Shown piece by piece: positions 1,550 to 37,585 of a DNA stretch of 64,000 nucleotides. This DNA comes from Barthelona sp. PCE. Lineage: Eukaryota. The translations under genes and the position numbers were made by a program. The stretch is from assembly GCA_040285745.1 (NCBI GenBank), contig JAUFOR010000008.1, forward strand, positions 1,612,001-1,676,000. Direction: 5' to 3'. The notes below the pieces were generated by a model. That model ran no database searches. It saw only the letters and a list, made by a program, of their open reading frames with translations, and had not been told where the DNA came from. The first letter of the stretch is position 1. Each line of letters begins with the position of its first letter.

Positions 1550-3517
1550 ATGTTCCTAAAAATCTTTGCAAAACCCAATTCTGAGGCGCTAGTGGTGGAT
1601 TTGAATGAGAATTCAACACTACTTGCGAATTCAAACTTATTTTCAAGCATATTCGAGCAGTTTGTAGATACCGCAGAGGAGGAAGACAGGCATTTGGACA
1701 TTGTTCTGAGCGAATTTTTTGATGATAGCGACACAGCGCTGACTTTTTTCACACCTGGCGCATTTGAACGTTTGTCTTTATTTTTGGAGAATATTGATTA
1801 TCTGCAGGAATATGTCGATTGCAGAAGCACGATTCTGAGTCTTCGTGAAGACTTTGAGGTTGGTGTTAACGAACTGAAAATGAACTTGCTCAAGGAAGAT
1901 GAAAAACTCGTTAAAAATCTTCAATCGAAGCTCGAGAAGCATGTAATATTGACAACCAAGTGTCTTAAGAACGAAACAGAGCGTCTAAACCAGGCATTGA
2001 GAAGATTACACACAGAGCTTGAGCAAGATCTTGCAACAAGACGAGAAGAATTCCACACTAGCTATCAGGAGACTTTGAGCATACTAAAGGAGAACTACCA
2101 TGCTGTTTCCAACCCCCTGCTAGAGAAAACTATTGAATTGCAGGATATTGCGTTGGAGTGTGGTCTGAGTAACCAAGAAGTCATTGACACTTTGATTTTG
2201 AGCGGGTTCCTTGCTATTGCAGAGGTAATTAACGTTTGTGCCAATTTCATCGCTCAGGACTTTGACGTTTTTAAGGACGAGCCAAATTTTGCCAGTCTGG
2301 TGTCAAAAACTCTCCAACAGGAGATTATGACAATGGCATCGCAGTGGGAGGTGACATCTCTGCCCAGCCCACAGAAGGGAGCACTTCGTTCGTTGCGGAT
2401 GGGACACATCATCATCAAGGATGAAGAACGGGTACCAGTTGAGCCAGTTCCACAAACTACAGTCAACGAAGAAGACTCCACACAGCATCTCAAGAACCTG
2501 CTGCAGAAGATAAAGAGGAATAGAGAAGAGTTTGAGGAATTCCATGACGAACTCAAACAAAGTGCCATTGATTTTGATGAACAGATGAGTAAGATCAACC
2601 ATCCAATTCCCGTTGAGTACGAGAACTTCGAACGGTCTCTTCCTGCATTGGACGATACGGTTGATCAGCTGATGGCCCAACAACCTACCACCGAGTCAAC
2701 AACGTCGCACCTCGTGAAGCGTAACAGAATGCAGGCGTTTTTGAAGAAGAAGAAGCAGAGATCACAGAAGCTTAAGTCCCCAGTGAGACGAAAGGTTGAT
2801 TTACGCAATCTTGCCGCAGCATCACCAGTTGAAAAGAAGGCTGATAAGAAGGCGCATGAGGATGCTGTCCGCTTAACAGTTTTGAAGGAGCTTGAGGAGG
2901 TGGAACACGAGATCGAGGCCCGTCTTGGGGAGATCACACCTCACCTACCACCCACAGTTGACATGTCTAATCTTCCTCTTTGGTCATTCGTTGAGATGCA
3001 CATGCAAAAGTCCGATGAGTTGTGTTTGTACGATGCAATTTGGGATACAGAAGATAATGATTACGGAAAGATGATGCGTTTATTAGGTTGGTTGCAGGAT
3101 GCTCCGAAGAAAATTGAGAAGCGTGGTGAGCGCAAAGAATTTAAAGGCAGAAAGGCAACTAATCACTACAGCGAGCTCGTCACATACTGGAAGAGCGTTG
3201 TGTTGGACGATGACGTTGACGACAATGTCATTGTTGAAGTGATACCATCTCCCGCAAAGGATCATTTAGATGAAGAGGATGTGCCGAGATCATCGATGAG
3301 CATTGCAGAGCTCATTGCAACACAACCAACTGCTCCAGAAGAGCCAGAAGAGGAAGCAGCAACACCAAAACTAGAAGAAAAAGTCGAGATGAACATTGAT
3401 GATATGATTGCGAATGTGACTGCAAAAGTCAATCTTGCTTTGGGGAACCTTTCATCGAGCAAGGACCATAGCACGTCTTTGGATGTACTTGTAGAAGAAT
3501 CACGTTTGGGTGTGTAA
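1550..3517 (+). CDS. Hypothetical acidic coiled-coil protein
   Basis: 655 aa ORF with heptad-rich E/L/K segments and a basic KKKKQR patch. No family recognised. Confidence 0.75.
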   Translation: MFLKIFAKPNSEALVVDLNENSTLLANSNLFSSIFEQFVDTAEEEDRHLDIVLSEFFDDSDTALTFFTPGAFERLSLFLENIDYLQEYVDCRSTILSLREDFEVGVNELKMNLLKEDEKLVKNLQSKLEKHVILTTKCLKNETERLNQALRRLHTELEQDLATRREEFHTSYQETLSILKENYHAVSNPLLEKTIELQDIALECGLSNQEVIDTLILSGFLAIAEVINVCANFIAQDFDVFKDEPNFASLVSKTLQQEIMTMASQWEVTSLPSPQKGALRSLRMGHIIIKDEERVPVEPVPQTTVNEEDSTQHLKNLLQKIKRNREEFEEFHDELKQSAIDFDEQMSKINHPIPVEYENFERSLPALDDTVDQLMAQQPTTESTTSHLVKRNRMQAFLKKKKQRSQKLKSPVRRKVDLRNLAAASPVEKKADKKAHEDAVRLTVLKELEEVEHEIEARLGEITPHLPPTVDMSNLPLWSFVEMHMQKSDELCLYDAIWDTEDNDYGKMMRLLGWLQDAPKKIEKRGERKEFKGRKATNHYSELVTYWKSVVLDDDVDDNVIVEVIPSPAKDHLDEEDVPRSSMSIAELIATQPTAPEEPEEEAATPKLEEKVEMNIDDMIANVTAKVNLALGNLSSSKDHSTSLDVLVEESRLGV

Positions 3518-5195: not shown

Positions 5196-7913
5196 ATGCA
5201 CAAAACATTTCGAGTGTGCGATGATGGAGAAGACGTTTCTGTCTTCCGTAGCACTTTTGTGCCTTCTTCAAACACATACATTGCAGCTTCAGAAGCTCAG
5301 CTTTGCCTATTTGACGTAAAGGGCATTAAACCACCGCAATCACACACAGCGCTGATTGCTGCACCTTCAGATAATAACGGTGTGCACCTTGTTGGTGTTA
5401 ACAAAAAATGGATGGTTGTGGGATGCAGAAATGAATTATACTATCAGTATATGACCGGGGTAGCCGAGTTTCGTCGCTTCATGCACGACAACGATGCCCC
5501 AGTGTCAGGTATTGGATGTCTTGATGCTGGTGTTGTTTTTTCAGTTCAAAAAGACAAAGAGTCGCCTGTTTTCGTTCGATTTTCAGAGGAGACGAAGGAA
5601 ATAGAGGAGTATAAGCCACTTAATATACCTATGCACAGTTATTGTGCCTGGCTAGTCTCGGATGGTAAGAACAGAATTGCATTCCAGGATGCTCGCAGTC
5701 CCCATTTACAGATATATGACGTTAGGGCGGGTACCAATACCATAATTCAGAACGTTGGACGTGTCAATGTTAACGTTCGCGAACACCCATTTGTAACACC
5801 ATGTTTCTCGAAGAACGGGAAGTTCCTCGCAATTTCAGGATGCGTTGCACCGCATTTGCCCGTCATACACATGAAAATGGGAAGTAATACGATTTTAGAG
5901 CTTAAAAGCAAGCGGTTGCAGGGAAGTTATGCGGAATGTGTTGCCTTCGACACTGGTAACATATTTGCTCTTGCAACAACTACACAGTCGCTTATTGTGT
6001 GGAAGCTTTCAGATCAGGAGATCTATTTTGAGTGTGACCTTGAAGAGTTTGATATTGTCGCAGCAAAGGCTCTCAGCACTGTTCCAAGACAGTCGGTCAC
6101 TGACCATTTGATTGTAGCTATCATTGATGACCGCGGTGAGGCGCATCTTATTGATATTTCAACAAAACACTCTAAATCCGAGTATTCTAAGAAGGAATCC
6201 TTAAAGCAAGATATTGAAGATCTCATGGATCCTGACGAGGAGACAGGCGAACGCGAGCGAATGAAGGCACTGGATGATGAAAGCGACGACGAATCAGATA
6301 TTGAAGCTGCACATCAAGCCGTTTCTAGAACATACCAGGTTGACCATATTCAAGCAACAGGGCAAGCGACTTTTCAAGTTGCTTCAGAACCTCTGGATAA
6401 GAGCAAAACTTGCGTGTTGTGCGTTAATGAACACGGTGTGCTGCGTCGTGAACAAGGCGGAACAAGTGCTCGTTTTTCCCCTCACGTTCAAAATGCACCA
6501 ACCCCCATTACCAATATTAGCAGCGGCGGCGACGGTGAGCTGATTTTGGGCTGTGTCTGTGAAATCGGTATTCTTTACGTTGTCGAAAGACAGTACAACG
6601 AAAGTGATGAATATGAGCACATTGTTTGCTTTGAACCCTTCTCAAGATCGCGCACAAGTTGGCATTATAAGTTGCTCAATAGAAAGGAGCGTGCGCTGTG
6701 TTGCGCAATGGGCAGTAGAATGGCAACTGTAGTAACGTCTATGGGTCTTGTTCGCTGTTTTGCCGCTGGAGGAATGCAGCTTCCGATAATCACGCTCATG
6801 GGTGCACCAGTTACATGCGTTGCTTTAGTGGACACAGCTGCGATACTCACTGATCAAAACGTAATGATTATCACCCCCAGTCGTCTCGGACAAGTCAACG
6901 TCGTTCCCGCACCTTACGACGGCGTGAGCAATTGTAGATGGTTTGGCTTCAACAAGAAGGGATATCTCTTCTTTTTGAACGACCGTGGCTGCCTACACCA
7001 ACTCAAGGGAACACATTGGACTTGTATGGCGACTGTAGGATCTGCAATGTATGTTTTTGCAATTGTTGGGGGTGAGATGCACTATGAGCTCACTGACGAG
7101 GCAAGCGGTATGCCAGTGTTCCCAAAGGACATTAAAGTGAAGAGGATAAACATAAGGTTACAGAATCCTTTATTGGGCAGTCATAAGAATCCAGAGGAGA
7201 TGGAAATGCACAACCAGTTGCTGATGGGTCTCTCACTGCATCAAACTTCGCTCGACATGCTTGGGAAACGGAGACTCAGCAAGGATATGATTGCTCGGCT
7301 CATTCAGCGGGATTCTGAGCTTGATAGTTATACTGTGAGGATAATTAGCAATCTTGTTGCTTCTGTACAGGGAGCAAAGGTGACGCGTGAGGTTAAGCTT
7401 CGATGGAGGGTTCTTGATTATTGTCAACTTCTTCGTTTACGCAAGTCATTGCTTACTGTTCGGATCAAGTGTGAGGCTGAGGGGTTCTCTGAGATAGCTA
7501 GAGATATAGAGAACATGGAGCGGTCTGTTTTCCCACAAACACAGGATGTTTCAATTTCTGAAATGTTTCTAAAGAACAAATCACTGGCTAACGTTGATCA
7601 GTTCCTCTCCGTTAAGAAACAGACACCAAAGAAGGTTAACTTTGGCGCTGCTGTGCTTCAAAACACCCCAGCAAGTCTGTCTATGAGCTTCCCAGAGGAG
7701 GACAGCGATGAGAAGTCTGAAGAAGAAATGGAGGAATTACCCATTGAATCACCATCAATCGAGGAAAGAAAGCGCACACAGGCTGCTCCCGCTCAATCGT
7801 CACCCATCCGCAAGCTTCAGAAAGTTTCTGCAGTTAAGGTTGTGTCGTTGGGGAGTGGATCACCAAAGAAGCCTTCGAAGTCGGGCAAGAAGAGTAGTAG
7901 ACGTTTTATTTAA
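5196..7913 (+). CDS. WDHD1: Ctf4/And-1/WDHD1 replisome hub protein
   Basis: N-terminal WD-like beta region, acidic linker, then SepB-like motifs (ATFQVAS, GLVRCFAAGGMQ..GAPVT, CRWFGF..G) and a helical C-terminus. Confidence 0.75.
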   Translation: MHKTFRVCDDGEDVSVFRSTFVPSSNTYIAASEAQLCLFDVKGIKPPQSHTALIAAPSDNNGVHLVGVNKKWMVVGCRNELYYQYMTGVAEFRRFMHDNDAPVSGIGCLDAGVVFSVQKDKESPVFVRFSEETKEIEEYKPLNIPMHSYCAWLVSDGKNRIAFQDARSPHLQIYDVRAGTNTIIQNVGRVNVNVREHPFVTPCFSKNGKFLAISGCVAPHLPVIHMKMGSNTILELKSKRLQGSYAECVAFDTGNIFALATTTQSLIVWKLSDQEIYFECDLEEFDIVAAKALSTVPRQSVTDHLIVAIIDDRGEAHLIDISTKHSKSEYSKKESLKQDIEDLMDPDEETGERERMKALDDESDDESDIEAAHQAVSRTYQVDHIQATGQATFQVASEPLDKSKTCVLCVNEHGVLRREQGGTSARFSPHVQNAPTPITNISSGGDGELILGCVCEIGILYVVERQYNESDEYEHIVCFEPFSRSRTSWHYKLLNRKERALCCAMGSRMATVVTSMGLVRCFAAGGMQLPIITLMGAPVTCVALVDTAAILTDQNVMIITPSRLGQVNVVPAPYDGVSNCRWFGFNKKGYLFFLNDRGCLHQLKGTHWTCMATVGSAMYVFAIVGGEMHYELTDEASGMPVFPKDIKVKRINIRLQNPLLGSHKNPEEMEMHNQLLMGLSLHQTSLDMLGKRRLSKDMIARLIQRDSELDSYTVRIISNLVASVQGAKVTREVKLRWRVLDYCQLLRLRKSLLTVRIKCEAEGFSEIARDIENMERSVFPQTQDVSISEMFLKNKSLANVDQFLSVKKQTPKKVNFGAAVLQNTPASLSMSFPEEDSDEKSEEEMEELPIESPSIEERKRTQAAPAQSSPIRKLQKVSAVKVVSLGSGSPKKPSKSGKKSSRRFI

Positions 7914-9547: not shown

Positions 9548-11446
9548 ATGCCAAGAGTGGTAACTCGTCACTTTGATCGATTTTCACAAATATGTTTTGG
9601 AGCAGTAAGCATTATAGTTAGTTCTTCTCCGGAACTCAACAATTACAACTTTTATGTTATAAATGAGTCTGAAGAAAGATTATCAATACCACCATGTGGG
9701 CTAGAGCCTGCTTCAAAAAGTAATTCTCGGTTGTTTGAAGCCATTATTGCATCAGGGTTATTCTATCGTCGATTGGTGACTACATTGGGTGATCAGTGGA
9801 ACATAGAGCTTGAATTGGTTCAGGTGAAGCGGTACAATGAGTGTGAAATGATTGGAAGATATAGTTTTAAAGGTCCTCGACTTGTTTTGCAAAATGGACA
9901 TCTACTCAATGATGAGTATTGGGTTTACTTGTTTGAGGGCTTCATATCATTCATCAATCTAAGGACTGGTGAGCTTTCAGAGACATTCTTTTCGGATCGT
10001 GTAGCTTTTTTCAGATTTTTTTCTCACAATGATATTTTGTTTATTGTATCGGTAGCTGATCAGAAGATCTGGCATAATGTTGCGTTTGGAGAGGATGGAA
10101 AGCCGTTTTTGAATGCAAATCACCCTCTTTTCAAAGAAACATATTTTTGTTTGGACGAAACACCCGGTCAGAGCTGTTTTATCATGTGGGATAAGGGACC
10201 TGTTACAATAAGCATATCCGGCAATGATGTTATCAACGTGCCGATTGACTATGAAATACCAAAACAGAGGAAATCAAATGAATTTATTCGATTTCAAGAT
10301 TTTATTTTATTCCGTCGTAACCATACGTATGTTGCGAGTAGAGAGGACATCGATCTGATATCTGAGCTATTTTTACCGTTTTCCGTTGATGGAATCCTTT
10401 ACAATTACAAACCACCGAGTACGGAGTTTAACAAGGTTTTAAGCACTCAAGGAAAAGGGTTTGTTTGCTTGAAGAATGACGAGTTGATCCCGGAGCTGAA
10501 TTTCAATGTTGATGTACGAAAAATATCATACTCAAAAGTTGTAGGTACAAGATATGTACTGGACTTGTTCAATAACCGAAGTTTCTTCTTTCAACCAGCG
10601 CAGCATGTTTTCGAAGGAGAGGTATCGCTGATGAGCACAGGTCGAATTTATGATTCAGATAGTGCAAAATGGAAGATGAAGTGTCTTACATCTTCAAACC
10701 AGGAATACAATTTGTATATAGATAATGTATTAGTGAGTTCGATCGTTAGACCGTCTCATCAGCCTAACATGAATTTTCCCAAGTTTTCAGATCGTATAAC
10801 TGTTCTACCTTGTGTGGTTGGTGATCGATATTTACTGATGGTTGATGACAAGATGATTGCAACGTTAAGAAGAAGCGGTTCCTTTGAAGTAGTTGGAAAC
10901 ACGGTGTGGATTGTTGAGCATAGGCAACTGACAATGATAAAGATTGATGATGATTTTGTTCCGATCAAGCATTACCTAGCTTTCGATGAAGAACGGTTAA
11001 AGATCAAAATGATTAACGAATATGATTCCAATGAGCTGCTTGTTTCTGGTAACAGTGTGGATTCGGGCAACGTACAGTTTTTTGTTAAATTTAACGGTGA
11101 AACAAATTCGTTGGAGAGATTTGAAGTGTCAGATGTGAGTAAGGGGAGTGTGTTTGTTGATAAAGGAGTTCTGCTTTTAGGTAATGATTTACATATACTA
11201 AGCAGAGGGATCATTCGTATTCTGCATATTGCTATTCTTGATGTTTCCATGAGGTTTAGTCCCCAACCGGGTGTGCTGGTGTGTTCAACGTTGAAGCAAG
11301 TGGACAGCGTTGTTTATCTGGATGTTTTGTCATTTGATGATGATTATAGAGATTACAGCCGTTGTTCGAAAAGGAAAAGCGTCATTGATATCATCACTCA
11401 AGGTGATTTTTCAATTTTCACCGAATTTACCCACTTTGCTTGTTAG
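9548..11446 (+). CDS. Unassigned beta-rich 'MPR' family protein, copy 1
   Basis: 632 aa, starts MPRV, rich in F/V/I strands, with NEYDSNEL and SPQPG motifs near the C-terminus. Confidence 0.75.
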   Translation: MPRVVTRHFDRFSQICFGAVSIIVSSSPELNNYNFYVINESEERLSIPPCGLEPASKSNSRLFEAIIASGLFYRRLVTTLGDQWNIELELVQVKRYNECEMIGRYSFKGPRLVLQNGHLLNDEYWVYLFEGFISFINLRTGELSETFFSDRVAFFRFFSHNDILFIVSVADQKIWHNVAFGEDGKPFLNANHPLFKETYFCLDETPGQSCFIMWDKGPVTISISGNDVINVPIDYEIPKQRKSNEFIRFQDFILFRRNHTYVASREDIDLISELFLPFSVDGILYNYKPPSTEFNKVLSTQGKGFVCLKNDELIPELNFNVDVRKISYSKVVGTRYVLDLFNNRSFFFQPAQHVFEGEVSLMSTGRIYDSDSAKWKMKCLTSSNQEYNLYIDNVLVSSIVRPSHQPNMNFPKFSDRITVLPCVVGDRYLLMVDDKMIATLRRSGSFEVVGNTVWIVEHRQLTMIKIDDDFVPIKHYLAFDEERLKIKMINEYDSNELLVSGNSVDSGNVQFFVKFNGETNSLERFEVSDVSKGSVFVDKGVLLLGNDLHILSRGIIRILHIAILDVSMRFSPQPGVLVCSTLKQVDSVVYLDVLSFDDDYRDYSRCSKRKSVIDIITQGDFSIFTEFTHFAC

Positions 11447-11451
11447 TATTA

Positions 11452-13275
11452 CTATTCAATGACTTTAGCTTCATACACAGACAATATATCGATCAAGATA
11501 TCGATTTTAATTTCCTCCTCAGCGCCTTGCACAGATAGAGAACGCACGGTAATTTCTCTGTTTTCACATGTTACCACTTCAATAACGTTATCACCGGGTG
11601 CATTGTGGCATGCACTAATATCAAAGTCGTATGAACGTATTATGCTGGCTGACAGATCATTGTGCAATTCATAAATACCAAATGTGGTAAAAAACCCACG
11701 ATGGCTGCACCATCCGATGAATTCCTCGGTATTGGATAATTCCAACTGTTTTGACGTGTCAGCAATAACATCTCGTACGTAGTACGCATTGTCATCTTCA
11801 TCTATGTCACATATTTCATATACATAAAGGTTACGATCGAAATTATTAGAAAACAGGTTTCCAATGTGGTATTCATTGAATACTCTTGTTTCCTCCACTG
11901 TGATACTTTTACCATCGAACGCAAACGGAATTTCATACCTTTTATCTCGGATAAAAACACACATACCATGGTTATCACTTGTTTGATAACAAAAAACATC
12001 AGTGTTTGTGGTTTCTTCATAATCATGATCTTCGAAAACCCATTCAGCTGCCACATCAGTCTTCTTAATTGTAATACGATTAGACGATCCAGTAGAATTG
12101 CTTTCAGCACAAAATATTGTGCCGAACTTTTTGTTAACGAAATCATTCCAATTAGAATCATTAGAACCCTTTAAGTAGATGCGCTGTTCATCCTGATCAA
12201 CTATAACACTTGTTGGATAGCCGAAGCGGAAGTTTCTGCCGCATTTCTCAATTTCAGTGATATCAAGAACAGCTAACATGTTGTTATCTACCCGGACGAT
12301 TCGAGCAGATGAGTAAAAACGACTGTAAAAAAGTGGAACTTCATTTTTAAACTGATGACGAAGATCAAAGCCAACTGAAAAATCAACCTCAGGTCTTGTT
12401 CTGAAGATGATGTATCCTTTACCCTGGATTAGTGCCAGACATTTCATGTCATCGTTAGTCACCTCAACAATGCAGGTGTGTGCCTTGAACGAAAGTGCAT
12501 AGAGACGATAACCTGGTCGATAAACAAGAATGCTGAAACATTTTAAACTAGAATATGTATTCACACACTGTTCCAAATAGTTTGTAACCAGAACGGAGAC
12601 CGGTTCCATTCTCTTCCCGTCGTATAAGTATGAACCGAGGTGCTGAATTGAATACATCGTCACACAGCAGTTACTGGCAGGAATTGCATCACTCAACATA
12701 TAGTTTTCATCCATTGGGACGAGTTTTCCATCAAAATCAGATGCTACATAGTCGCAGAAAATGATACTATGGTTTTGAATGTATGAAGTGAACAACGTGA
12801 CGCCCAAATCAGATATCAGTTCTTTCTTTTGTTGATCAACTTTCGGATGCAGTGGTGATTTGTAGAGGTCTAACACATCTTCTTCTGTCATACCAGTGTA
12901 ATAAATAGCATCAGGTGAGTAACCAACAATGGTATTTGAATCAAAATTTGGAACTCGACACACGCGAAGCTGCTTTGAACCATCTTTCTTAAGACATGCC
13001 TCTGTAATGCAACATGTCTCTTCATCCGAGTCTTGAAAGCGAAAATACGCTTTGTCACCCACAAAAGTAGGTTCAATGCAATTCGATGGATAAGTAGAGT
13101 TTGTGGTTCTGAAATAATGGTAATACTTAATTTCAGTACCATTTCCCAAACTGAATACGTCCAAATCTTCTAAAGATTCGTTGTGTAGAAAAATTGCACC
13201 ATTTGAAACAGTAACAATACATTCCTCAAGTCCACAGATTGATATTCCCTCCTCAAAACTCTTTATACGGGGCAT
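11452..13275 (-). CDS. Unassigned beta-rich 'MPR' family protein, copy 2
   Basis: 607 aa, starts MPRI, with NNFDRNL and CHNAPG motifs near the C-terminus. Tail-to-tail with copy 1 across a 5 nt gap. Confidence 0.75.
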   Translation of the reverse strand: MPRIKSFEEGISICGLEECIVTVSNGAIFLHNESLEDLDVFSLGNGTEIKYYHYFRTTNSTYPSNCIEPTFVGDKAYFRFQDSDEETCCITEACLKKDGSKQLRVCRVPNFDSNTIVGYSPDAIYYTGMTEEDVLDLYKSPLHPKVDQQKKELISDLGVTLFTSYIQNHSIIFCDYVASDFDGKLVPMDENYMLSDAIPASNCCVTMYSIQHLGSYLYDGKRMEPVSVLVTNYLEQCVNTYSSLKCFSILVYRPGYRLYALSFKAHTCIVEVTNDDMKCLALIQGKGYIIFRTRPEVDFSVGFDLRHQFKNEVPLFYSRFYSSARIVRVDNNMLAVLDITEIEKCGRNFRFGYPTSVIVDQDEQRIYLKGSNDSNWNDFVNKKFGTIFCAESNSTGSSNRITIKKTDVAAEWVFEDHDYEETTNTDVFCYQTSDNHGMCVFIRDKRYEIPFAFDGKSITVEETRVFNEYHIGNLFSNNFDRNLYVYEICDIDEDDNAYYVRDVIADTSKQLELSNTEEFIGWCSHRGFFTTFGIYELHNDLSASIIRSYDFDISACHNAPGDNVIEVVTCENREITVRSLSVQGAEEEIKIDILIDILSVYEAKVIE

Positions 13276-13334: not shown

Positions 13335-16300
13335 TTATTCAACCACGACGCGAACATGACGTGCTGAAGAGGCACTCTGTGGTGGTCTCTCTTCTTCTTT
13401 AGCGCTTGACATTTGATGGACTTCCTGAAGTTCTTCAACATGTGCAGTCTCACTGGGTTTTGATTCTTCAGGCTTCTTGCCAACGTTAGCCTTTGAGCTT
13501 GATCTTGCAAGTGTCTTGAGATTACTCTGTGAGACACTCTTCTGCATCTGTTCGAACTTCGACATCTGTCTTGAGATATTCGCTTTTGAGGCGGTATTCT
13601 GTGTTGCAAATGCTGTTTTCTTACTCAGTTCAGCATAACGCTTACGTAACATACGCAGCTGCTTACGAGACTGGAAAACATAACGGATACCAACCAATAT
13701 GTGAATAACCGTCGCAAACAGGAAGCAATATACGGACCATTCGCCGATCTGGGTCTCTGTGGGCATGGTTGTAATATACTTATCAAGCTTGAGAGCTTCT
13801 TTGACCTCATCACTCATGCTCAGTGAAGCGATCAGGGTAATAGCGATGAAGTTTGCAAGTCGAGCAATAACATCCATCACATTCTCACTGGAATCAGAGA
13901 AAGGACGAGAAATCAAAGCGATGAGGAAGTAAAAAGCAATGACCAAGAAAGCTATAGAGGTTTTACCTCGAGTAGAAAAGGCAAAGATGGTTCCAACCAT
14001 CAGGAAAAACTTCTCAAGCATCTGGATAACCTTATAATAGCGGTAAGAACGACGGTAGTTAGAGTATAGATATGATTGGGCAGTAGAGAATTCACGAACA
14101 GCATCACTCCATAGTTTACGGAAGTCGACTTCAGCTTGGCGAACATCTTTCTTACCTTCCTTACCCTTACTCTTCTTACGCAAGGCTTTGATATCCTTGA
14201 GCTTCTTCTTGATACCGTAATTTTCATCTACATCGTTAACACCACGTCGGATAAGAGCACTGAAAAAGATTGGGAGTGCAAAGGCGGTAACACCAGCACC
14301 AACTAAACAGACCCATTGGAATACAGAGTACTCGTCAACAGCTCTTCCACAGTTCTGAGTGGGGAAGCTCTCAATTACATATTTACCACTTTGCTCAACA
14401 CACTTGAAAGCTCCTAGTAATGTTTTGATGACTGGTAGATAAAGAGTTGTGATCCAAAAGAGTGCAGCACGTTTCTTGAGCTTAAGGAACTGGAACCAGA
14501 AGGACTCCGTGTTGATCTTCTTGTGGAAATAGAAGGCAAACATCCAGTAAGCAAGGAAAGCCAAAAAGGTGGGGAGAAGGAACTGGAACAAAGTGTCGAC
14601 GCCTTCACCACTAAAATCAGCATTTTGCAGCTTTGTGATAAGCTCTGTGTCCGCTACATAGGCGAAAACACCACCAATTAAAACGCAAATCAAAAACAAA
14701 AACAGAGTAAAGCAGATATGTGAGCAGAACCGATGGTAGTATCGTTTATGCCATTTTTGTTGTTTTGGGTTGGTCAAATAGAAGAAATAGAAGAAGAGAA
14801 TGCCCAGCAGAACACCAAAGTATTTGGCGTAGTTGATGAGCTCGGAACCAGACACAATATCTGAGAAATCAATTGATACAGCCTTAAGAATTGTGTTAAA
14901 CACATCAGGTACACCCGGCCATATAAGGGTGGGACCCAAAGCTGCAAGAAGGAAGAAAATCTGATAAAAAGTTGTGAAAATCTCCCATTTAGTAAGAACA
15001 GAACCGTCCGCACGTGCTTGCGGAATGGTAAGGATGTCTGCGTATTCAGGGGCCTCGAACATCTCAAAATCTTCAAGTTCAATGGCGTCCTTACGTGCCT
15101 TAATTTGATCTTCATCGAGATACTCGTAGTCAGCCTCGGTCAGGAGCGGAGGTCGTTCCAAGAAAGAGAGCCCACAATCGGTCTTAAGACGCGAAGACAC
15201 GGCAATAGCATTCATTCGTTCATCGTCAGTGACTGTCTTTCCGTTCAGCGTTTGTAAAGATTTGCACATATACAGCAGCATGAATCGTACAGAGTCGATC
15301 GAGTTCCAAGAGTCAGCAAATATGAGGTGCTTGACCGGTAGATGCGACAGTGCACGAAGACAAGCAACAAAATGCAATGGTTCAATACAGTCCTTGTTAA
15401 GATCGATGGAGGTAATGTTGTTACGACCACACTCGACGCCCTCAAAGTGTTGGAGATACTCCACAGCAAGGAACTCGTGCTTGTCGATGGCGTACGGGTT
15501 ACGGAACCCATCAATAATGTTGAGTCCGCGGAGGAACAGTCCCATAGACTCTATATAATCCTCCGGTTTCTGGAACGCGTCTTCAGCGCAGTTCTTCACA
15601 CGGAGCTCCTGAAGGTTGTGGCAGTACGCCAGCACTCTGAAGTTCTGCATCGGCTCAATAATATTGTTGTTTGCAATGGAGAGGAAGACGAGATCACGAC
15701 ACTCAACAATGGTTTGAGGAACGTTGTAGATCTTATTGTTCGACACGTCAAGTGACTGGAGCATGGGGAAGCGTTCGATACCTGCAATACTGCGGATCTT
15801 CTGATTCCGGAGGGTAATTGAAGTTGTCGTCTCGTTGTATCCCTGATGCTTACAAAGGATCAAGAAATGGAGCTTGTTGACAGCCTCCTGTCGTCCAGAG
15901 TGGTCCTCGAGAGCGGTGAGGCGTTCACGCTGCGTGATTGGTTTGTTATCAACACGAGATAGCTTACAATCAATCGAGAGCATGCGTTCACTGCAGCCAA
16001 TGATCTTCTTACGGTCAGCGCCAGGGTTGCCCGCAACAATGATGGACTGCAAGGAAGGAACAAGGTCGACGATCTTGGAAAACGTCTCTGGGTTCTTGAT
16101 AGCATTGTGACTTAGGTCTAACACCTTCAGGTTCTCGCACTTCTCGATGTTTGCATTCAGAATTGCCTCATCAGTGATCTGATTACCCATGATCGTGAGT
16201 GATTCCATGCTCTTGAAGTATTGGAAATCAATGCGCTTTAAGTTCACCTTTGCCAGCGACATCTTTCGCAGATTGACAATGTCGTTCCTGGAGAGCCCTG

Positions 16301-19025
16301 ATCGCTCGACGAGGGTACGTAGGATAGCGTGGAATTTGTATATTTCGCGGGTTTCACCGAGCACCTCATACACTTCGTTCCATCTGATTGGCGAACCGTC
16401 CAGTTCTCCAAGAGGTGTCCAGGGATTCCTCAACGTTTGAAGTTCACTGATAAACGATGCGCGATCACTCTGCTTGGTCATCCATTTGTGTCCGTGAACG
16501 CCGAGCACCTTGAGGTTGGGTAGAGCGTTGACAATTGTGATTATCTCGTCCTTGCGGAGAAGGTTTGAGCGTAGATCGAGGATTTCAAGGTTCTGAAGAT
16601 TTGTAATAGAAGAATTCCTGAGGGTTTTGAGTGAGTTACCAGCAAGGTAAAGCTCGGTCAGCTCAGCATACTCTGTAAAGTTAACGTACTTGAGATTGCA
16701 TCCAGTGAGATCGAGAACTGTATCTTCTAATCGCTGCTGCACCAAACAGGAAAATTTAAACTCTTCAAGGTCACGGGAGTTGCCATTGTTGCGCATGAAA
16801 AGCTGTACACGCTCATCAACAGAGATCATGTTATCGACATACATCAGTTTAAAGCTCTGGACGTGCATGGGAAGGTTCTGTACGATGATACCACGCACCT
16901 GCTCGTTGAATCCATGGTTAAAACGAAGCGCAATGGCAGTGAGGTCTGGTAGGCCCATTATATAGTCCACAACGGTCGGGATACCGATAGTCTCAATGTT
17001 GATCTGGTTGTGTGACAGGTCCAAGCGCTGTACGGTCTGCGGTATGTCAGGGAGAGTCGTCAGCTTGTTATTGGCGAGGTTCGCAATACGAAGGTTGACG
17101 TACGGTGCAAGGTCTATATTCTCTAGCTGCAGACCATAACAGTTAATAGAACGAACCTCCTCATCCTCGAACTGACTCTCTTCGTATTCAGGATCAAAGT
17201 TAAATGCACCGTCAAGTCCATAGAAACAAGCAAGCCTCAGCTTGAACTCATCAGAAGCGTCTGTGAGATCACGCTCAATAGGGGCGATCTTCATACCATC
17301 GAGGAACGCAAGACGGGGCAAGTTAGCTGCGACGATGGACTTACGATACTGTGGATCCTTCTTCTGCTGTTCATCAGCAACGAGGTTTAATGAAACGAGA
17401 GCTTGAAGATGTTCCATTTGCGTTTTGAGATAATTGAAGTCAATCTTGTTGTTCTGCAGGTCAAGATACTCCAGTGCAGTTAGCGACTCAAGACCCTTGA
17501 CATAAGCCAGACTATTACCGTGCAAATCTAGATAGACGATTGAGGCCATGTTGGTTACATCTGCATACGGTACGCGCATATCGCGGATGACGACGCTCTT
17601 GAGACCAGCCATAAAGGAAGTATCAAGAAGTTGACGATGTCCAACAGCTTGGATCATAGCCATGTTCCAAATCTTGATCCACTTATCCTCCTTCGCAATT
17701 TGCGCCATGTGAATGGCACGCATATAATCAGCATGTGTAATTACATTACCATCAACCTTCTGCAGACCAGGAAGGTCATTTGTACCGGGAAGATGGCCTG
17801 TTGACATCAACAGTTGAGGAAGATAGGCTTGGTTGGAAACTGGGTTGTTACGGAGATCAACCTCCTTGAGGGAGGGGCAGAATGAAAAAACCGCAATAAA
17901 ATCCAAGGTTGCGAGTCTGTTACCAACCAAAACAACAGAAGTCAAGAGATCCAGGTGCTCAAGACCGCAGCCTTGCACTGTTGTTAGGTAGTTTCCACTC
18001 AGGTCAAGATGTTTCAGACTTGCAAAGTTACGAACGTGGAATTGGGTTAAACCAGCGTTTTTAATTTCGATTTTCTGAATCAGAGCAGGTTGCCAGAATT
18101 TCATCTTTGCAATCTCGGGCAGTGTCATAACACACTTATCCCATACACCGATGGGTCCTTCTACTCGATCCATCATGGTTGTCGTCTGTCCGTTTAAGAA
18201 ACGGAGTGTTGGGCAAATCCTTACAAACTGCGGCGTTGCTTGAATCGGGTTGTTTCTGATGTCAAGGAACTCAATGGGGCAGTTCTGTAGCAGGAGAGAT
18301 AGCATTCTTGCGTTTGTTATTCTGTTGCTCGTAACATCGACATAACGAACATTGAACCAGCGGCCTACGGGAAGCCCCTGGAGACCACAGTCACGAAGAA
18401 TGAGGACTTCGATGTTTGGGCAAGCAACGATAGCTTCAACCATTTTCTTCTTTAATTCTTCGCCCGAAATTGCTACGTATTTAATGTTAACATAGTTCTC
18501 AGGGGTGAGATGGATGAGAGCAGAGCCGCTGGTGACTTTCTCCTCATCTTCATATTCGGTTTCAGAACGAAGAGGTCCAAGCCCACGGGAAAAAATTGCT
18601 GGAAGCCAATCTTGTGCTTTAATTGCATCTCTTGCCTCTTCGAAACGATCTTGATTGAATTCAGCCGGATACACACCTCTAATGTCGGTTTCAAAATCAG
18701 GATTCAAAGGTTTGGGATACTCTTCACCTTTTCCTGGCACAACAGGAGGAAGTTCGAAGAGCTTGTTACCGTCAGATGGCGGTGGGCGATTTGAGAGACG
18801 GGAAACAAACTTAGGAGCATTAAGTTGCATTTGTTGCTGTTCAGCAGCTGCACGTTGTGCGGCTTCGCGTTGCAGAATCATTTGCTGGTGCTGTATTGCT
18901 TGCATGTTTGGCATTGATTGAGGCATTGGTTGCTGCTGAAAGCCAGACATTCTATTTGGGTTTGCATACCCTTGTGTGGGAACCGAATTGCGGTACCCAG
19001 CTTGGGGCGCGCTGTTTCTAAACAT
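13335..19025 (-). CDS. Large leucine-rich-repeat protein with a C-terminal multi-pass membrane domain
   Basis: Q/M/P-rich N-terminus, many LxxLxLxxNxL repeats grouped by eight LRR-cap motifs, then about 10 hydrophobic segments. Confidence 0.88.
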   Translation of the reverse strand: MFRNSAPQAGYRNSVPTQGYANPNRMSGFQQQPMPQSMPNMQAIQHQQMILQREAAQRAAAEQQQMQLNAPKFVSRLSNRPPPSDGNKLFELPPVVPGKGEEYPKPLNPDFETDIRGVYPAEFNQDRFEEARDAIKAQDWLPAIFSRGLGPLRSETEYEDEEKVTSGSALIHLTPENYVNIKYVAISGEELKKKMVEAIVACPNIEVLILRDCGLQGLPVGRWFNVRYVDVTSNRITNARMLSLLLQNCPIEFLDIRNNPIQATPQFVRICPTLRFLNGQTTTMMDRVEGPIGVWDKCVMTLPEIAKMKFWQPALIQKIEIKNAGLTQFHVRNFASLKHLDLSGNYLTTVQGCGLEHLDLLTSVVLVGNRLATLDFIAVFSFCPSLKEVDLRNNPVSNQAYLPQLLMSTGHLPGTNDLPGLQKVDGNVITHADYMRAIHMAQIAKEDKWIKIWNMAMIQAVGHRQLLDTSFMAGLKSVVIRDMRVPYADVTNMASIVYLDLHGNSLAYVKGLESLTALEYLDLQNNKIDFNYLKTQMEHLQALVSLNLVADEQQKKDPQYRKSIVAANLPRLAFLDGMKIAPIERDLTDASDEFKLRLACFYGLDGAFNFDPEYEESQFEDEEVRSINCYGLQLENIDLAPYVNLRIANLANNKLTTLPDIPQTVQRLDLSHNQINIETIGIPTVVDYIMGLPDLTAIALRFNHGFNEQVRGIIVQNLPMHVQSFKLMYVDNMISVDERVQLFMRNNGNSRDLEEFKFSCLVQQRLEDTVLDLTGCNLKYVNFTEYAELTELYLAGNSLKTLRNSSITNLQNLEILDLRSNLLRKDEIITIVNALPNLKVLGVHGHKWMTKQSDRASFISELQTLRNPWTPLGELDGSPIRWNEVYEVLGETREIYKFHAILRTLVERSGLSRNDIVNLRKMSLAKVNLKRIDFQYFKSMESLTIMGNQITDEAILNANIEKCENLKVLDLSHNAIKNPETFSKIVDLVPSLQSIIVAGNPGADRKKIIGCSERMLSIDCKLSRVDNKPITQRERLTALEDHSGRQEAVNKLHFLILCKHQGYNETTTSITLRNQKIRSIAGIERFPMLQSLDVSNNKIYNVPQTIVECRDLVFLSIANNNIIEPMQNFRVLAYCHNLQELRVKNCAEDAFQKPEDYIESMGLFLRGLNIIDGFRNPYAIDKHEFLAVEYLQHFEGVECGRNNITSIDLNKDCIEPLHFVACLRALSHLPVKHLIFADSWNSIDSVRFMLLYMCKSLQTLNGKTVTDDERMNAIAVSSRLKTDCGLSFLERPPLLTEADYEYLDEDQIKARKDAIELEDFEMFEAPEYADILTIPQARADGSVLTKWEIFTTFYQIFFLLAALGPTLIWPGVPDVFNTILKAVSIDFSDIVSGSELINYAKYFGVLLGILFFYFFYLTNPKQQKWHKRYYHRFCSHICFTLFLFLICVLIGGVFAYVADTELITKLQNADFSGEGVDTLFQFLLPTFLAFLAYWMFAFYFHKKINTESFWFQFLKLKKRAALFWITTLYLPVIKTLLGAFKCVEQSGKYVIESFPTQNCGRAVDEYSVFQWVCLVGAGVTAFALPIFFSALIRRGVNDVDENYGIKKKLKDIKALRKKSKGKEGKKDVRQAEVDFRKLWSDAVREFSTAQSYLYSNYRRSYRYYKVIQMLEKFFLMVGTIFAFSTRGKTSIAFLVIAFYFLIALISRPFSDSSENVMDVIARLANFIAITLIASLSMSDEVKEALKLDKYITTMPTETQIGEWSVYCFLFATVIHILVGIRYVFQSRKQLRMLRKRYAELSKKTAFATQNTASKANISRQMSKFEQMQKSVSQSNLKTLARSSSKANVGKKPEESKPSETAHVEELQEVHQMSSAKEEERPPQSASSARHVRVVVE

Positions 19026-31365: not shown

Positions 31366-34300
31366 ATGGATAAACAAAATTTTAAGGAGCTTTGCAACCT
31401 TCCCATTTGCCGTAATCAGCTTTTGGTTGAGTTAGTTAAGTTACCAGTTTTTAGTGCTTCATTGTCAGAATTCTCATCAGTCAAAGAGAAGAAGGCTTAT
31501 CTTCATCATCTTCGTATTCATAAAGCGTATCCCCTTTTGTTCAATATGTTGGAAGGAGGGGACATCAGACTTGTTCTTAGTATTATGAACTTTCCTCGTG
31601 TTTTCAGAGCTTTTATGGAACAGGACAACATATTAGACAAGCTAAAGAAGCTTCGCACACTCGTAAGACAATATTTGTTTGGTAAATTGGGACGAAAGTT
31701 TCAGTTTTCATCAGTTTGTGATTTAATTGTTAATTGTGATTCATTTACATCTTATGAAAAGCAGAGGGTGCTGTCTTCTTGTTCGTTAGGAGTTCTTGAA
31801 GACCGAATTAATCACGAAACACCATTAAATTTAATTAATCGACTTTTAAAACGCAGAGATACTCTTCAAATTTTGGAAAAATGGGTGTTTTTATGTCTTC
31901 AGCACAACACCAAGTTTTTTTCAGAAGGAAGAAAAATATATACTACTGTGTTTACTAGACTTGTGAATGGTTCAGTAACTTTTATTGATTTTATGATCAA
32001 TTTCCTTAAAGAAAATGGGCTAATGCACTGGATATCACCCACTATCAAAAGAAAAAAAATGATTTTACCGTTTGTTGTGTTGAAATATATTTTTGTGAAT
32101 TTTCCACAACTTTATATTGAAGAGATAAGTGAAAAAAGATATGATACATTATATGATGATGAGTTATTGGTTGTTTTGGAGTTGGACAAAGAGTTGTTCA
32201 TAAAGTTAATACTTAAATCTCCAGTTTATTATCGAAATTTTGTTATGAAAAATGAATGTATTCTTCGAGAAAAGGTTGTATGGGCGAGGATCATTTCATC
32301 AGTCATGGAACACATCAATGCACCAACTAAATTTTCGTTAGAGAATACAAAAATGTGGAAAAAAAGTAGGAAGGATCACGTTGTTACTAGTCCACATAAT
32401 TTGTCGTGTTGCAAGATTATTGACAATGATGAGTTGCAAGAGATCACTTATCTCAAACAGACCATTCGTGTTGACAGGTTCACTGCTGAAATGTTCCATA
32501 GTTTGGTTAGCAAACAATGTCTAGATGCAAATTTTTTGTTTACTGCCTTTTTAGAACGTTTTCTTTTATGGGGTTCTGATCTAGAGCTGGGAGCATTGAA
32601 ATTGTTTGTTAAGTTGGCAATGAACAGATTTAGCGGTTTAGACTTGAATAGTTTTTGTTTTCCAGTTACTTCCATTTATCACACTGATGATATTATTGAG
32701 ATTTTTGAAGAGGCGTCGATAAAAAATTGTTATTATTGGATGAATCCATTGAACTTATTATCGAAATCACCTCAGGATGAAACCGTTATTGAATATGCTG
32801 CATATTACCTACGAAAGATGTTAAACTATTTTGAAGAGAAAAATATTCAATACAATATTATTGTGAACCTGGTTTATCCCGATTTTCCAGCGCAGTTTTC
32901 TATGGAATATTATGTGAAGCACAACAAATTCAGAATACATCATTTTTTCGAAGTTCATAGTGCTAAGAGTGATTTTGTTAATACTTACAAAGAGAATACA
33001 AGCATTAATGTTCCATTTTGGGTGAGTGTAATTAAAACTGCGTTTGCTGGCTCTCAAAAATCTACGCGCAAGAGTGTTGGCAAATTCCTAAACTTATTTT
33101 GCAATTCAATCCAGTTCACTAATGTGGTGAATATGAAAAAAAAGCGTACTACTATTCTTAATCAAAAATTTTTAACTGAGTACGGTCTTGATGAACTTTT
33201 AGGGGAAGGTGTAACGCTATATAAATACAGACATCTTTTTCATGAAAGGAAAGATGTGTATTCATATAAAAAAACAGTTATCAACACTGAAGTTTTCAGC
33301 AATCATGCGATTTTTAAACCTGTTGCGAAAGATTATTCAACAAACTCCAATATTCATCCAAAAATTTACCGTGATACATGGATGAAATATGCATCCCAAA
33401 TCAAATATGATCCTCTCTTAGTTGTTGAACAAAGTGAGCTCAATTTAATTCGTGATGAGATTTTGGGAGAGCTTGATGATCATCTTAATATGTTGGACGA
33501 AATCGTTGAGCAGTGGGTCGAAACGGATGACATGAAGGAAAGTTTGGAACAAAACCAGAAGTTACAAACCATCGAAAATTTCTTCGCCCAAATAATGTGT
33601 CTATCTCTTTTTTACGATGTTAGGCTTACTGATTCACAACGTGAAACAGCGTTGCGTGCTGGTAGAATGAATAGTAGTTTCGGTATGTACGTTAAAAGAT
33701 GTGTACTTATGTTATATAGAAGTTTCAGCAACGATATTGCACTTCAAGTACACGGTCTCAAGTTTAATGGCTCTGCTCCTTATGCATGCGGGAATCTTAT
33801 TAAATATGCAAGCACTTGTAATCAAACTGAAATAATTTCTTTGTTCGATGATATCACAATGTTAGCGGATGTCAAAGGAGTAACTTCTGTCAAAATGATG
33901 ATTGTGCTGGTTCACAAATTTATGGAACAAATTCCAAACTTTAATGAGTTTTTACTCAAATTATGGAAAAGACCAATTAGTGTTGACGTTAGAATCTTAT
34001 TATTGAATTATTCTGTTGAGATAATCGAACAAAACCCAGTCAAAATGATTAGAACAGAGATATTTTCGATGTTGGAGGATTGTGCTACTCGATTTTCCAC
34101 GTCAAAATCACTAATTGAGCATTTGTCAAACATAATCATTGGTTTCAGCAGGAATTGGAGTCATGAGGACTTTATCAGTTGTTATCCACTCATTGAGCAA
34201 CGTATTTTACTTCCAATTATGAAAGATTCTGGTGATGACATGAGATACAGTATGATGTCAATTATTGGTACTTTTACTGAAATAGCAAGACCCATTGCTT

Positions 34301-35523: not shown

Positions 35524-37585
35524 CTAAATCAAACTGTTAATTGATAAGCTGAAAGTTTTCATCATTTCTGAAAAACTATGTTCAGTAGTTTCATCAACAC
35601 CTGATCCATAAAATCGTTTCGTAATGAACCGAAATGGGTAGTACCCAGCCAATACTCGGATAATGGCACGTTGTTGAAACGAAATATTCTCTAACAAAAT
35701 TCGTTCACCCGGCTCATTGTGAACACATTCCCCTAAATGTAGGTGTTTGAGAGCACTATTGTAACGGTATACACGTGTTGCATTGCTGTCAGAGTCAGCT
35801 GCTAAATCAGGCGAAAAGAATTGGAGTTTTTGTAATACTAAGATGCTACAGTCGTAATCAACAGTTGATATTTCTAAATTTAGGTTATTGACTGAATAAG
35901 CAAGAACATCAGAATAATTCCTAGTACCCCACAGTTCTTTGTCAAAAGGATTATAACACAAAAAACGAGAACGCGCATGATTATATTTCAATTCTAAAAC
36001 ATTTTCTTCATGTAAAGCAAAAGATACCACAATTACATAGGAACCACGCAGTATTATAAGATTATCAACAATGAATATTGAAGTAGTGTCTGCAGCATGA
36101 CCTATTCTTATACTATCAATAAAACCCAACGTGTCATCGAAAAGAAAAATTGACGCTCCACGAAAAGCATGAAAATCTTCTTGTAAAAAGCAAATAAGAC
36201 CCTTTTCTTCATCAAATGTATGTAAGATAGTGTTTCCTGGCATCGAAAACAGGGGTGTTATAAGATTATCATTGGTTGTATAATCAACAACATAAGTTAA
36301 ATTATGCATAACTGAAACCAACATCAACCGATCGTTAATAATTTGGTCACACGCAACTGGCCTATATTTTTGGCTTTGTGTGAATATCTGAGTTGTTTTG
36401 TCTTGAGTGTTAAAAATGATAGTTGCTCCACTGTCTTTTTTGGGAAAATTGTATGCATCAAACACTAAAAGATTTTTTGAAGCATGCTTACATCGGTTTT
36501 TATCCAATGTTAAATCATGAAATATATTTTTTCCACTTCTATAAAAGAAATTTTTGAGTTGAAAAGAACTTTCTGAGCTTTTTTCTAAACCCAATAAATT
36601 TGATACTCTGGTTTTAAAGCTTAATGACTTCATTTGCTGAAAGTTATCTGACGTGTTGCTGGTCAAGAATAGAATAGAACCATGTAAACAGTGTGCATAT
36701 TCACCAATTTCAATAACTTCATTGGTATTTATGTTATAATAACTGATAACGTGTTCTAAAATCAGAGAGAACTGGATAATATCTTCAGAAATCTCATATA
36801 TTATCATACCATAGCAACTGCAGAAATCAACCTCAGAAAAACATGTTTGAAGTAAAGGAAATTTTTTAAACAGATCAATATGACTAGGTCCATCACAGAG
36901 AACAAACTGATTAAAAGAATTATTGCTCCCTGAAACTTCTGTAACATGTAATAAACAATTTGCATTGATAACATTAAACTTGATCAGAATGATTATTGTT
37001 CAATGGATGGAGAACTAAATTACTGTCTAAATAGCAATATGTTGGGAAACCACCGAAAATACCACCCTCATCATATGAAAAAATTGGGTAAGCAGAAACA
37101 TAGGTTGAATGATTGAAAATTTCAAAATCGTTTAGCTCAATTTGCACTTTATTCCCCATTGTTTGAGCATACTCTATTTCAAGAGAATTGCTTTTAACTA
37201 GGAAAAAGGTCTGTGGGGTGTAGCAAAACAGCTTGTAATACTGATACTTCTGACTTGATAAAGTGGCCTCAAATTCTACTGTTTCAAAGATTTCATGTGG
37301 GCCACTTGCAGATATATACCAGAAATGTATCCTCACTGTGAAAATATCATCTTTCTGTGAGATTGTAAAAGAATAAAACAAATTATTTCCCTCAATACAT
37401 TTTCCCATTATAATTCCTTTGTGTACTTCTTCATCAGAACATCTGAATGACCCGTTATTTGTTTTGAAATCCTCATCAATTGTGATAAATGAAAAATTTT
37501 GTGCTTTGTCATTCACATTCAGTATGACTGGTTGGTCATGCTGTTCAATGTTATAAACAAGATCCTTTTGTAATAATCTCGGCAT
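35524..37585 (-). pseudogene. 'MPR' family copy 3, interrupted by one +1 frameshift
   Basis: The 5' ORF (MPRLLQ) stops at 36974-36976. The +1 frame is open from 36999 to 35524. Joined length is about 686 aa, with NPFDKEL and CVHNEPG motifs. Confidence 0.65.

Follow-up and report, generated by a model that had tools for sequence, protein, structure and literature searches.

Three genes with a Met-Pro-Arg start

The stretch of DNA analyzed here, which we call the window, comprises 64,000 nucleotides (nt) of the Barthelona sp. PCE genome (assembly GCA_040285745.1, contig JAUFOR010000008.1, positions 1,612,001 to 1,676,000 of the forward strand), and it contains three genes whose products begin with Met-Pro-Arg (MPR). 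The first gene (9548..11446, + strand) encodes a protein of 632 amino acids (aa), named protein 1, which is a demonstrated member of a family of proteins with an MPR start that are predicted to fold as tandem beta-propellers. The second gene (11452..13275, - strand) encodes protein 2 (607 aa, MPR start), a candidate divergent member that is unproven. These two genes are convergent, and 5 nt separate their stop codons. The third gene, encoding protein 3, lies on the minus strand and is split into two open reading frames (ORFs) in different frames, i.e., an N-terminal ORF of 203 aa with the MPR start (3N; 36974..37585) and a C-terminal frame (3C; 35524..36999) that is open from 36999 and has its first ATG at 36807, giving 427 aa from there. 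A previous reading of this DNA, made from its letters without database searches (the sequence-only reading), had pointed out the MPR start of the three genes and the frameshift of the third one, and both are seen in the ORFs. Our reading, to which we assign a probability of about 0.6, is that protein 1 is a two-propeller scaffold of a fast-diverging MPR family, and that proteins 2 and 3 are likely its distant relatives.

The two frames of the third gene are both open over a zone of 26 nt (36974..36999, - strand) that contains no homopolymer longer than 3, and a single frameshift within this zone joins them into a protein of about 686 aa. An intron was also considered. There are 60 GT..AG candidates that restore the frame, none of them with a notable consensus, and the shortest among the 40 candidates listed would delete 112 nt, all the listed ones deleting open reading frame. 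Since the intron candidates are unremarkable and remove coding sequence, a plain frameshift, either real or due to an assembly error, is the simpler reading of the split.

None of the three proteins matches a Pfam family at an expectation value (E) of 0.1 or below, and a crude scan of all their pieces detected no window resembling a transmembrane segment, as the sequence-only reading had anticipated. Their lengths (632, 607, and about 686 aa) can be compared with the 590-675 aa of the family described below, protein 3, which is frameshifted, being slightly above this range. The content of Phe, Tyr, and Trp is 12.4-15.8% in the pieces of the three genes versus 9.4% in the other ORFs of the window and 14.1% in the family.

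A strongly diverged family around protein 1

When 1.84 billion representatives were searched exhaustively by phmmer with protein 1 (E<=1e-3), 28 proteins were recovered, the query included, and 16 stand at E<=1e-10. The 27 homologues, with E values from 1e-24 to 3.6e-4, are 21-29% identical to protein 1 and about 590-675 aa long, and most of the alignments span approximately residues 1-630. A word-seeded search for homologues recovered nothing beyond the query, with protein 1 as with protein 2. When alignment A1, which contains 24 sequences including protein 1, was used in the word-seeded search, it added only P0029, a protein of 632 aa with an MPR start that is recorded as 'hypothetical protein PCE1_004618 [Barthelona sp. 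PCE]' and is the sole named member; P0029 was left out of A1. The identity between members does not exceed 35%, with medians of 15-23%. The hidden Markov model (HMM) of the family recognizes protein 1 with E 7e-170, a circular value because protein 1 is within A1.

The invariant columns of A1 are M1, N490, and F536, and the nearly invariant ones are P186, T205, P206, W375, W454, S571, and P572, with LDxTPG, NPYCxxE, and SPxPGV as consensus motifs. Two C-terminal motifs of protein 1 that had been quoted by the sequence-only reading fall on the best-conserved columns in the C-terminal part of the family alignment: NEYDSNEL (residues 490-497; 11015..11038, + strand) starts at the invariant N490 and corresponds to the consensus NPYCxxE, and SPQPG (residues 571-575; 11258..11272, + strand) contains the nearly invariant S571 and P572 of the consensus SPxPGV. 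Among the A1 columns there is no conserved set of His, Asp, Glu, Cys, or Lys suggesting catalysis.

The 24 members of A1 showed no Pfam family above noise, WD40 included, and the A1 profile gave 0 matches in a sequence search of the PDB. A search of bacterial and archaeal genomes with the single member P0002 returned 193 pattern matches, none of which was confirmed, and among the papers searched there was none combining 'Barthelona' and 'propeller'. On sequence grounds, protein 1 clearly belongs to a real, lineage-restricted, strongly diverged, and previously undescribed family, and the earlier proposal of a fast-diversifying, lineage-specific family is supported for this protein.

Predicted fold and role of protein 1

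AlphaFold2 with alignment A1 modeled protein 1 as an all-beta protein in which about 53 strands are accompanied by three short helices (mean predicted local distance difference test score, pLDDT, 80.6; predicted template-modeling score, pTM, 0.70). Foldseek found at least 500 matches of this model in the PDB at E<=1e-3, and the 41 matches listed are all large multi-propeller proteins or assemblies, with template-modeling scores (TM-scores) of 0.17-0.34 and identities of 7-12%. The viral structure library of Foldseek yielded generic propellers only (TM-score <=0.28 among full-length matches). The ESM Atlas model of protein 1, of low confidence (pLDDT 0.44), has propeller-type neighbours with TM-scores below 0.5. 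By hhalign, the N-terminal and C-terminal propeller halves of the family do not detect each other (E 0.16), which shows how weak the sequence signal of these propellers has become. Protein 1, a soluble protein, is modeled as a tandem double beta-propeller, the architecture being clear while a specific known family is not assignable. The beta-propeller fold proposed by the sequence-only reading is thus borne out for protein 1 by AlphaFold2 and Foldseek.

The family probably consists of non-enzymatic interaction scaffolds or adaptors with freely diverging surfaces. This role is predicted because conservation falls for the most part on Pro, Trp, Phe, and Asn, without a catalytic-type set, and because the structural neighbours among the listed matches are binding platforms. 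Under this proposal, the few conserved Pro, Trp, Phe, and Asn positions would hold the fold, the remaining surface would diversify freely, and the members would serve as non-enzymatic scaffolds or adaptors for protein interactions.

Proteins 2 and 3 as candidate members

Several weak signals connect proteins 2 and 3 with the family. When 32 window ORFs were used as queries against a 29-sequence set of the family, protein 2 gave the best E value (3.8e-4 to P0004), followed by 0.009 and 0.012. It also reached E<1 with 18 of 28 members, its shuffles reaching a mean of 5.4-6.5 and a maximum of 11 (0/120 reached 18) and its reversed sequence 9. Weak hits lying in a collinear band were counted against 100 whole-sequence shuffles and 100 shuffles of 20-residue blocks, the band having been set after the registers were seen, so that the counts are suggestive only. 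Protein 2 had 6 such hits (reached by 0/100 and 1/100 shuffles; reversed sequence, 1), 3C had 6 (1/100 and 9/100; reversed, 4), and 3N had 8 (1/100 and 1/100; reversed, 5), versus 1, 1, 2, and 1 in four control ORFs, for which 44-86 of 100 shuffles reached the count and the reversed sequences gave 0, 1, 3, and 1. In the case of 3C, five weak alignments lie at offsets of +202 to +212, which is the register that matches the C-termini (4/100 shuffles reach 5), and its best local hhalign alignment (E 0.16) falls in the same end-to-end register.

The C-terminal motifs that the sequence-only reading had described in the three proteins are present. In protein 2, NNFDRNL (residues 477-483; 11827..11847, - strand) stands in the register used by weak alignments to P0015, P0023, and P0006, each non-significant singly, and CHNAPG (residues 556-561; 11593..11610, - strand) is of uncertain equivalence to SPxPG, since the best-scoring alignment of this protein, that with P0004, puts it on the GNxxW region of the family. 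In protein 3, NPFDKEL (35932..35952, - strand) falls on the NPYC column of the family in the local hhalign alignment mentioned above, and CVHNEPG (35707..35727, - strand) was located by sequence. Of the window ORFs that reach 150 aa (33 in all), only these 3 carry the C-terminal pattern of the sequence-only reading, as do 9 of 4000 shuffles; the pattern was derived from these same sequences. While the motifs exist and those of protein 1 lie on conserved columns, the relatedness that had been drawn from them is not supported by the a-priori tests, all of them non-significant.

When a MAFFT alignment was forced, protein 2 seemed to match MPR, P186, P206, N490, F536, P572, and a C-terminal IDxLS, and both it and protein 3 matched N490, F536, and P572. 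Counting columns with MAFFT --add had no discriminating power, as the true member P0029 scored below unrelated ORFs. The ESM Atlas model of protein 2 (pLDDT 0.46, low) has propeller-like neighbours with TM-scores up to 0.49. The beta-rich character assigned earlier to the proteins is shown for protein 1 only (AlphaFold2 pLDDT 80.6), the models of protein 2 being of low confidence.

A number of results weigh against the membership of proteins 2 and 3, in addition to the late choice of the collinear band. BLASTP among the three proteins gave non-significant E values (0.027-0.33), and phmmer among all the window ORFs revealed no link of proteins 2 and 3. The family HMM reached E 0.43 with protein 2 and 0.31 and 0.25 with the two pieces of protein 3, an unrelated TFIIB-like ORF reaching 0.13. 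Sub-HMMs of the N-terminal, middle, C-terminal, and motif regions were non-significant and did not choose the register of the sequence-only reading. The hhalign probabilities for proteins 2 and 3 were below 1% (0.7% and 0.4%), and its global mode gave them trivial end overlaps only; as a positive control, the divergent true member P0029 was found at E 6e-7. Thus, BLASTP, phmmer, HMMs, and hhalign gave no significant link between proteins 2 and 3 on one side and protein 1 or the family on the other, and the profile similarity that the sequence-only reading had suggested looking for did not appear. Matches at conserved columns (135 or 19 columns) were as frequent in shuffled, reversed, and unrelated sequences, the 19-column test giving 7/19 for the real sequence and means of 5.7-6.9, with a maximum of 11, for the shuffles. 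The AlphaFold2 model of protein 2 from its single sequence was unusable (pLDDT 34.2), and the sequence search of the PDB gave one match for protein 2 (eIF6, E 0.98, noise) and 0 for 3C. Composition explains much of the excess of weak hits, since shuffles of protein 2 give about 6 versus about 1 for the control ORFs and for their shuffles, and the reversed pieces of protein 3 do as well as the real pieces (12 vs 11; 11 vs 9). Protein 2 also has a competing register near -105, and its offset cluster is non-significant (14-19/100 shuffles). Finally, an RCC1 gene of the window that is outside the family likewise starts with MPR.

On the basis of the rarity of the MPR start, the match in size and composition, the weak alignments, and the insensitivity of the sequence methods, we consider protein 2 quite probably a diverged member of the family, its gene also adjoining that of a proven member. 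For protein 3 the same conclusion is probable to a lesser degree, and the chance that the superfamily includes both of them, as more diverged members, is slightly better than even. These estimates are a judgement and were not computed. The three copies in 64 kb that had been proposed are, at present, one demonstrable copy and two candidates.

The most probable alternative is that the family includes protein 1 alone, and that proteins 2 and 3 are unrelated orphans of this highly divergent genome whose MPR start, size, and motifs are coincidental. It agrees with the failure of every a-priori homology test to reach significance, with motif matches in forced alignments that equal those of shuffles, with reversed sequences of protein 3 that score like the real one, and with the presence of MPR on the RCC1 gene and MPI on a Dis3-like gene. 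Moreover, 19 of the 33 window ORFs lack a Pfam family at the thresholds used, so that orphans are the norm and orphan status is by itself uninformative in this genome. However, 3 of the 5 Pfam-less ORFs of 550-750 aa start with MPR versus 1 of the 30 remaining ORFs, protein 2 surpasses 120 of 120 shuffles and its own reverse besides giving the best E value of the 32 queries, and the collinear excess is found in all three pieces and in none of the four control ORFs. In addition, the propeller halves of the family itself cannot detect each other, and thus the failed detection of proteins 2 and 3 weighs little. We therefore regard the coincidence as unlikely, and distant kinship remains our preferred explanation.

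The Met-Pro-Arg start

The MPR start of protein 1 is encoded by ATG CCA AGA (9548..9556, + strand). MPR begins 4 of the 33 window ORFs, an enrichment that agrees with the earlier assumption that such starts are commoner than chance, and Pro occupies position 2 in 5 of the 33. The fourth MPR gene (49774-50871, - strand) encodes an RCC1-repeat protein (RCC1-like domain, E 1e-72) that starts MPRRAPF; MPR is therefore not confined to the orphan family and may have a raised base rate in the genome. A gene encoding a Dis3-type RNB exoribonuclease (52077-54827, - strand) begins MPI. The codons vary among the MPR genes (CCA, CCC, or CCG for Pro; AGA or CGT for Arg), and hence the conservation is at the protein level. 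Among the 20 intact N-termini of the family there are 15 MPR, 2 MPI, 2 MPQ, and 1 MSH, so that MP is present in 19/20; the other 8 of the 28 sequences of the phmmer set are N-terminally truncated models. These 15 N-termini, together with that of P0029, make MPR a family trait.

A protein that starts with Met-Pro is expected to have a free proline N-terminus after methionine excision. In the model of protein 1 there is a strand at residues 5-8, and the pLDDT over residues 1-10 is 74, a value for protein 1 alone. Judging from this model, the conserved MPR most likely has a structural role, in which a strand with a free Pro-Arg end would close the ring. The removal of methionine would leave a free Pro-Arg N-terminus continuing at once into strand 5-8, the first of the model, and this strand would most likely latch a propeller ring shut.

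It is also conceivable, although improbable, that the MPR start is not structural and that a receptor recognizes the free Pro N-terminus (as a Pro-type N-degron, or through N-terminal methylation or targeting) and thereby controls the turnover of all members of the repertoire or their location. MP is kept in 19/20 intact N-termini of proteins whose remaining sequence is only about 22% identical, the variable codons point to selection on amino acids, and N-terminal proline is a recognized degron class (e.g., PMC11441550). The substrates of GID/CTLH ligases that carry Pro-type N-degrons have the Met-Pro start in common with the MPR family; they undergo conditional degradation via a GID4-like receptor, and the likeness of the MPR family to them consists in the Met-Pro start alone. 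Nevertheless, the strand that comes straight after the motif in the model of protein 1 fits a structural role at least equally well, and ring closure is the role that we favor.

Comparison with known propeller systems

The best E values among the Foldseek matches listed for protein 1 (9.4e-10 to 3.6e-8) correspond to tandem WD40 chains of doublet microtubules (PDB 9e78, 8i7o, 9d5n, 7rro, and 6u42), which we take to be of the CFAP52/WDR16 type. These chains, of about 605-626 aa, resemble protein 1 in length and in having two propellers per chain, but the superposition gives TM-scores of 0.29-0.34, a root-mean-square deviation of 13-14 Å, and an identity of 8-10%, and a WD40 Pfam signal is found in 0/24 members of the MPR family. 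To our knowledge, no conserved MPR start exists in the ciliary doublet-microtubule tandem-WD group. DDB1 (4a11_A), COPI (3mkq_E and 9qpq_D), Utp21 (4nsx), and IFT-A (8bbf_A) also use tandem propellers as a non-enzymatic binding platform (Foldseek E about 1e-8), but they are larger, with extra domains or a third propeller, and show TM-scores of 0.17-0.28 without sequence similarity. Bacterial propeller clusters of the ESM Atlas (PQQ_2/BamB-like, LVIVD, PD40/DPPIV_N, and DUF5711) are neighbours of proteins 1 and 2, DUF5711 being found for both; these are matches at the level of leads, given that the models have pLDDT values of 0.44 and 0.46, the TM-scores are below 0.5, and the feature scores do not exceed 0.90.

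An alternative that we consider very unlikely is that the family did not arise within this lineage and is a diverged form of a tandem-WD40 protein conserved among eukaryotes, such as an inner protein of ciliary doublet microtubules or a UTP of ribosome biogenesis. In its favor, the top listed matches (E 9e-10 to 5e-9) are the doublet-microtubule chains of Leishmania, mouse, Trichomonas, and cattle, which are similar to protein 1 in length, and the organism is a flagellate. Against it, the TM-scores and identities given above are low, DDB1, COPI, UTP, and IFT-A fall within tenfold in E value, 0/24 members match WD40 or any other Pfam family above noise, the PDB gave no sequence matches, and the 28 mutually distant clusters (<=35% identity) are unlike a single-copy orthologue.

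Gene content of the window

The genome of Barthelona sp. PCE has 10.2 Mb in 8 contigs (N50 1.59 Mb), with 40.3% GC and 5064 proteins (PMC11316075, Table 1), the fourth column of that table being assigned by us to strain PCE because the text calls the genome of this strain reduced. The window is compact and apparently intron-poor, has a GC content of 40.5%, and uses the standard code, the stop codons of its 33 ORFs of at least 150 aa being TAA (17), TAG (9), and TGA (7). Gene packing is extreme: besides the convergent stops of the genes of proteins 1 and 2 (11446/11452), there are overlaps of 18 nt (3500-3517) and 8 nt (7906-7913) and a direct abutment (30164/30165), and thus the neighbouring transcripts must overlap. 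The genes with eukaryotic Pfam families encode a RIO kinase and Mcl1/Ctf4, ThiF, YEATS, TRAPP, and TFIIB proteins, as well as RCC1, Dis3-type RNB, EAP30, longin SNARE, and ENTH proteins.

The gene that adjoins that of protein 2 (13335-19025, - strand) encodes a protein of 1896 aa with many leucine-rich repeats (LRR_4, E 1e-31) and a hydrophobic C-terminal region with a weak TRP-channel-like match (PF06011, E 0.034) that is below the cut-off. The product of 31366-35454 (+ strand), of 1362 aa and without a Pfam family, has about five tandem Gly/Phe-rich repeats (GGFGT..NGFGAPRAPN), located at about 35090-35400, followed by an Arg-rich tail; these C-terminal repeats are reminiscent of FG-repeat proteins. 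A giant ORF (38011-46596, + strand; 2861 aa from GTG or 2816 aa from the first ATG), also without a Pfam family, encodes a product with a single hydrophobic stretch near its C-terminus that resembles a large surface protein.

Significance of the MPR family

As a sequence family, the MPR family is new, but its fold is very common, and it comes from a little-studied anaerobic protist in which most genes are orphans. Its description is useful for annotation, and one conserved feature is curious, but it is no new kind of system and leaves long-standing open questions untouched. Pfam lacks this family, which occurs in a lineage near the base of the metamonads, and the family shows how far propeller sequences drift while AlphaFold2 recovers the fold from just 24 sequences.

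A more speculative view, to which we give little credence, is that in barthelonid flagellates double-propeller adaptors have expanded into a repertoire that evolves by birth and death, dozens of its lineages being now below 35% identity and some members lying beyond the reach of any sequence method, and that the free Pro-Arg N-terminus, their one invariant feature, is a dedicated recognition tag (degron, methylation, or targeting signal) for common control. If this were true, the repertoire with its Pro-Arg tag would constitute a new adaptor system coupled to an N-terminal signal. A strict Met-Pro-Arg start on proteins that are about 22% identical is unusual and testable, and it may report on N-terminal processing or on the closure of the propeller ring.

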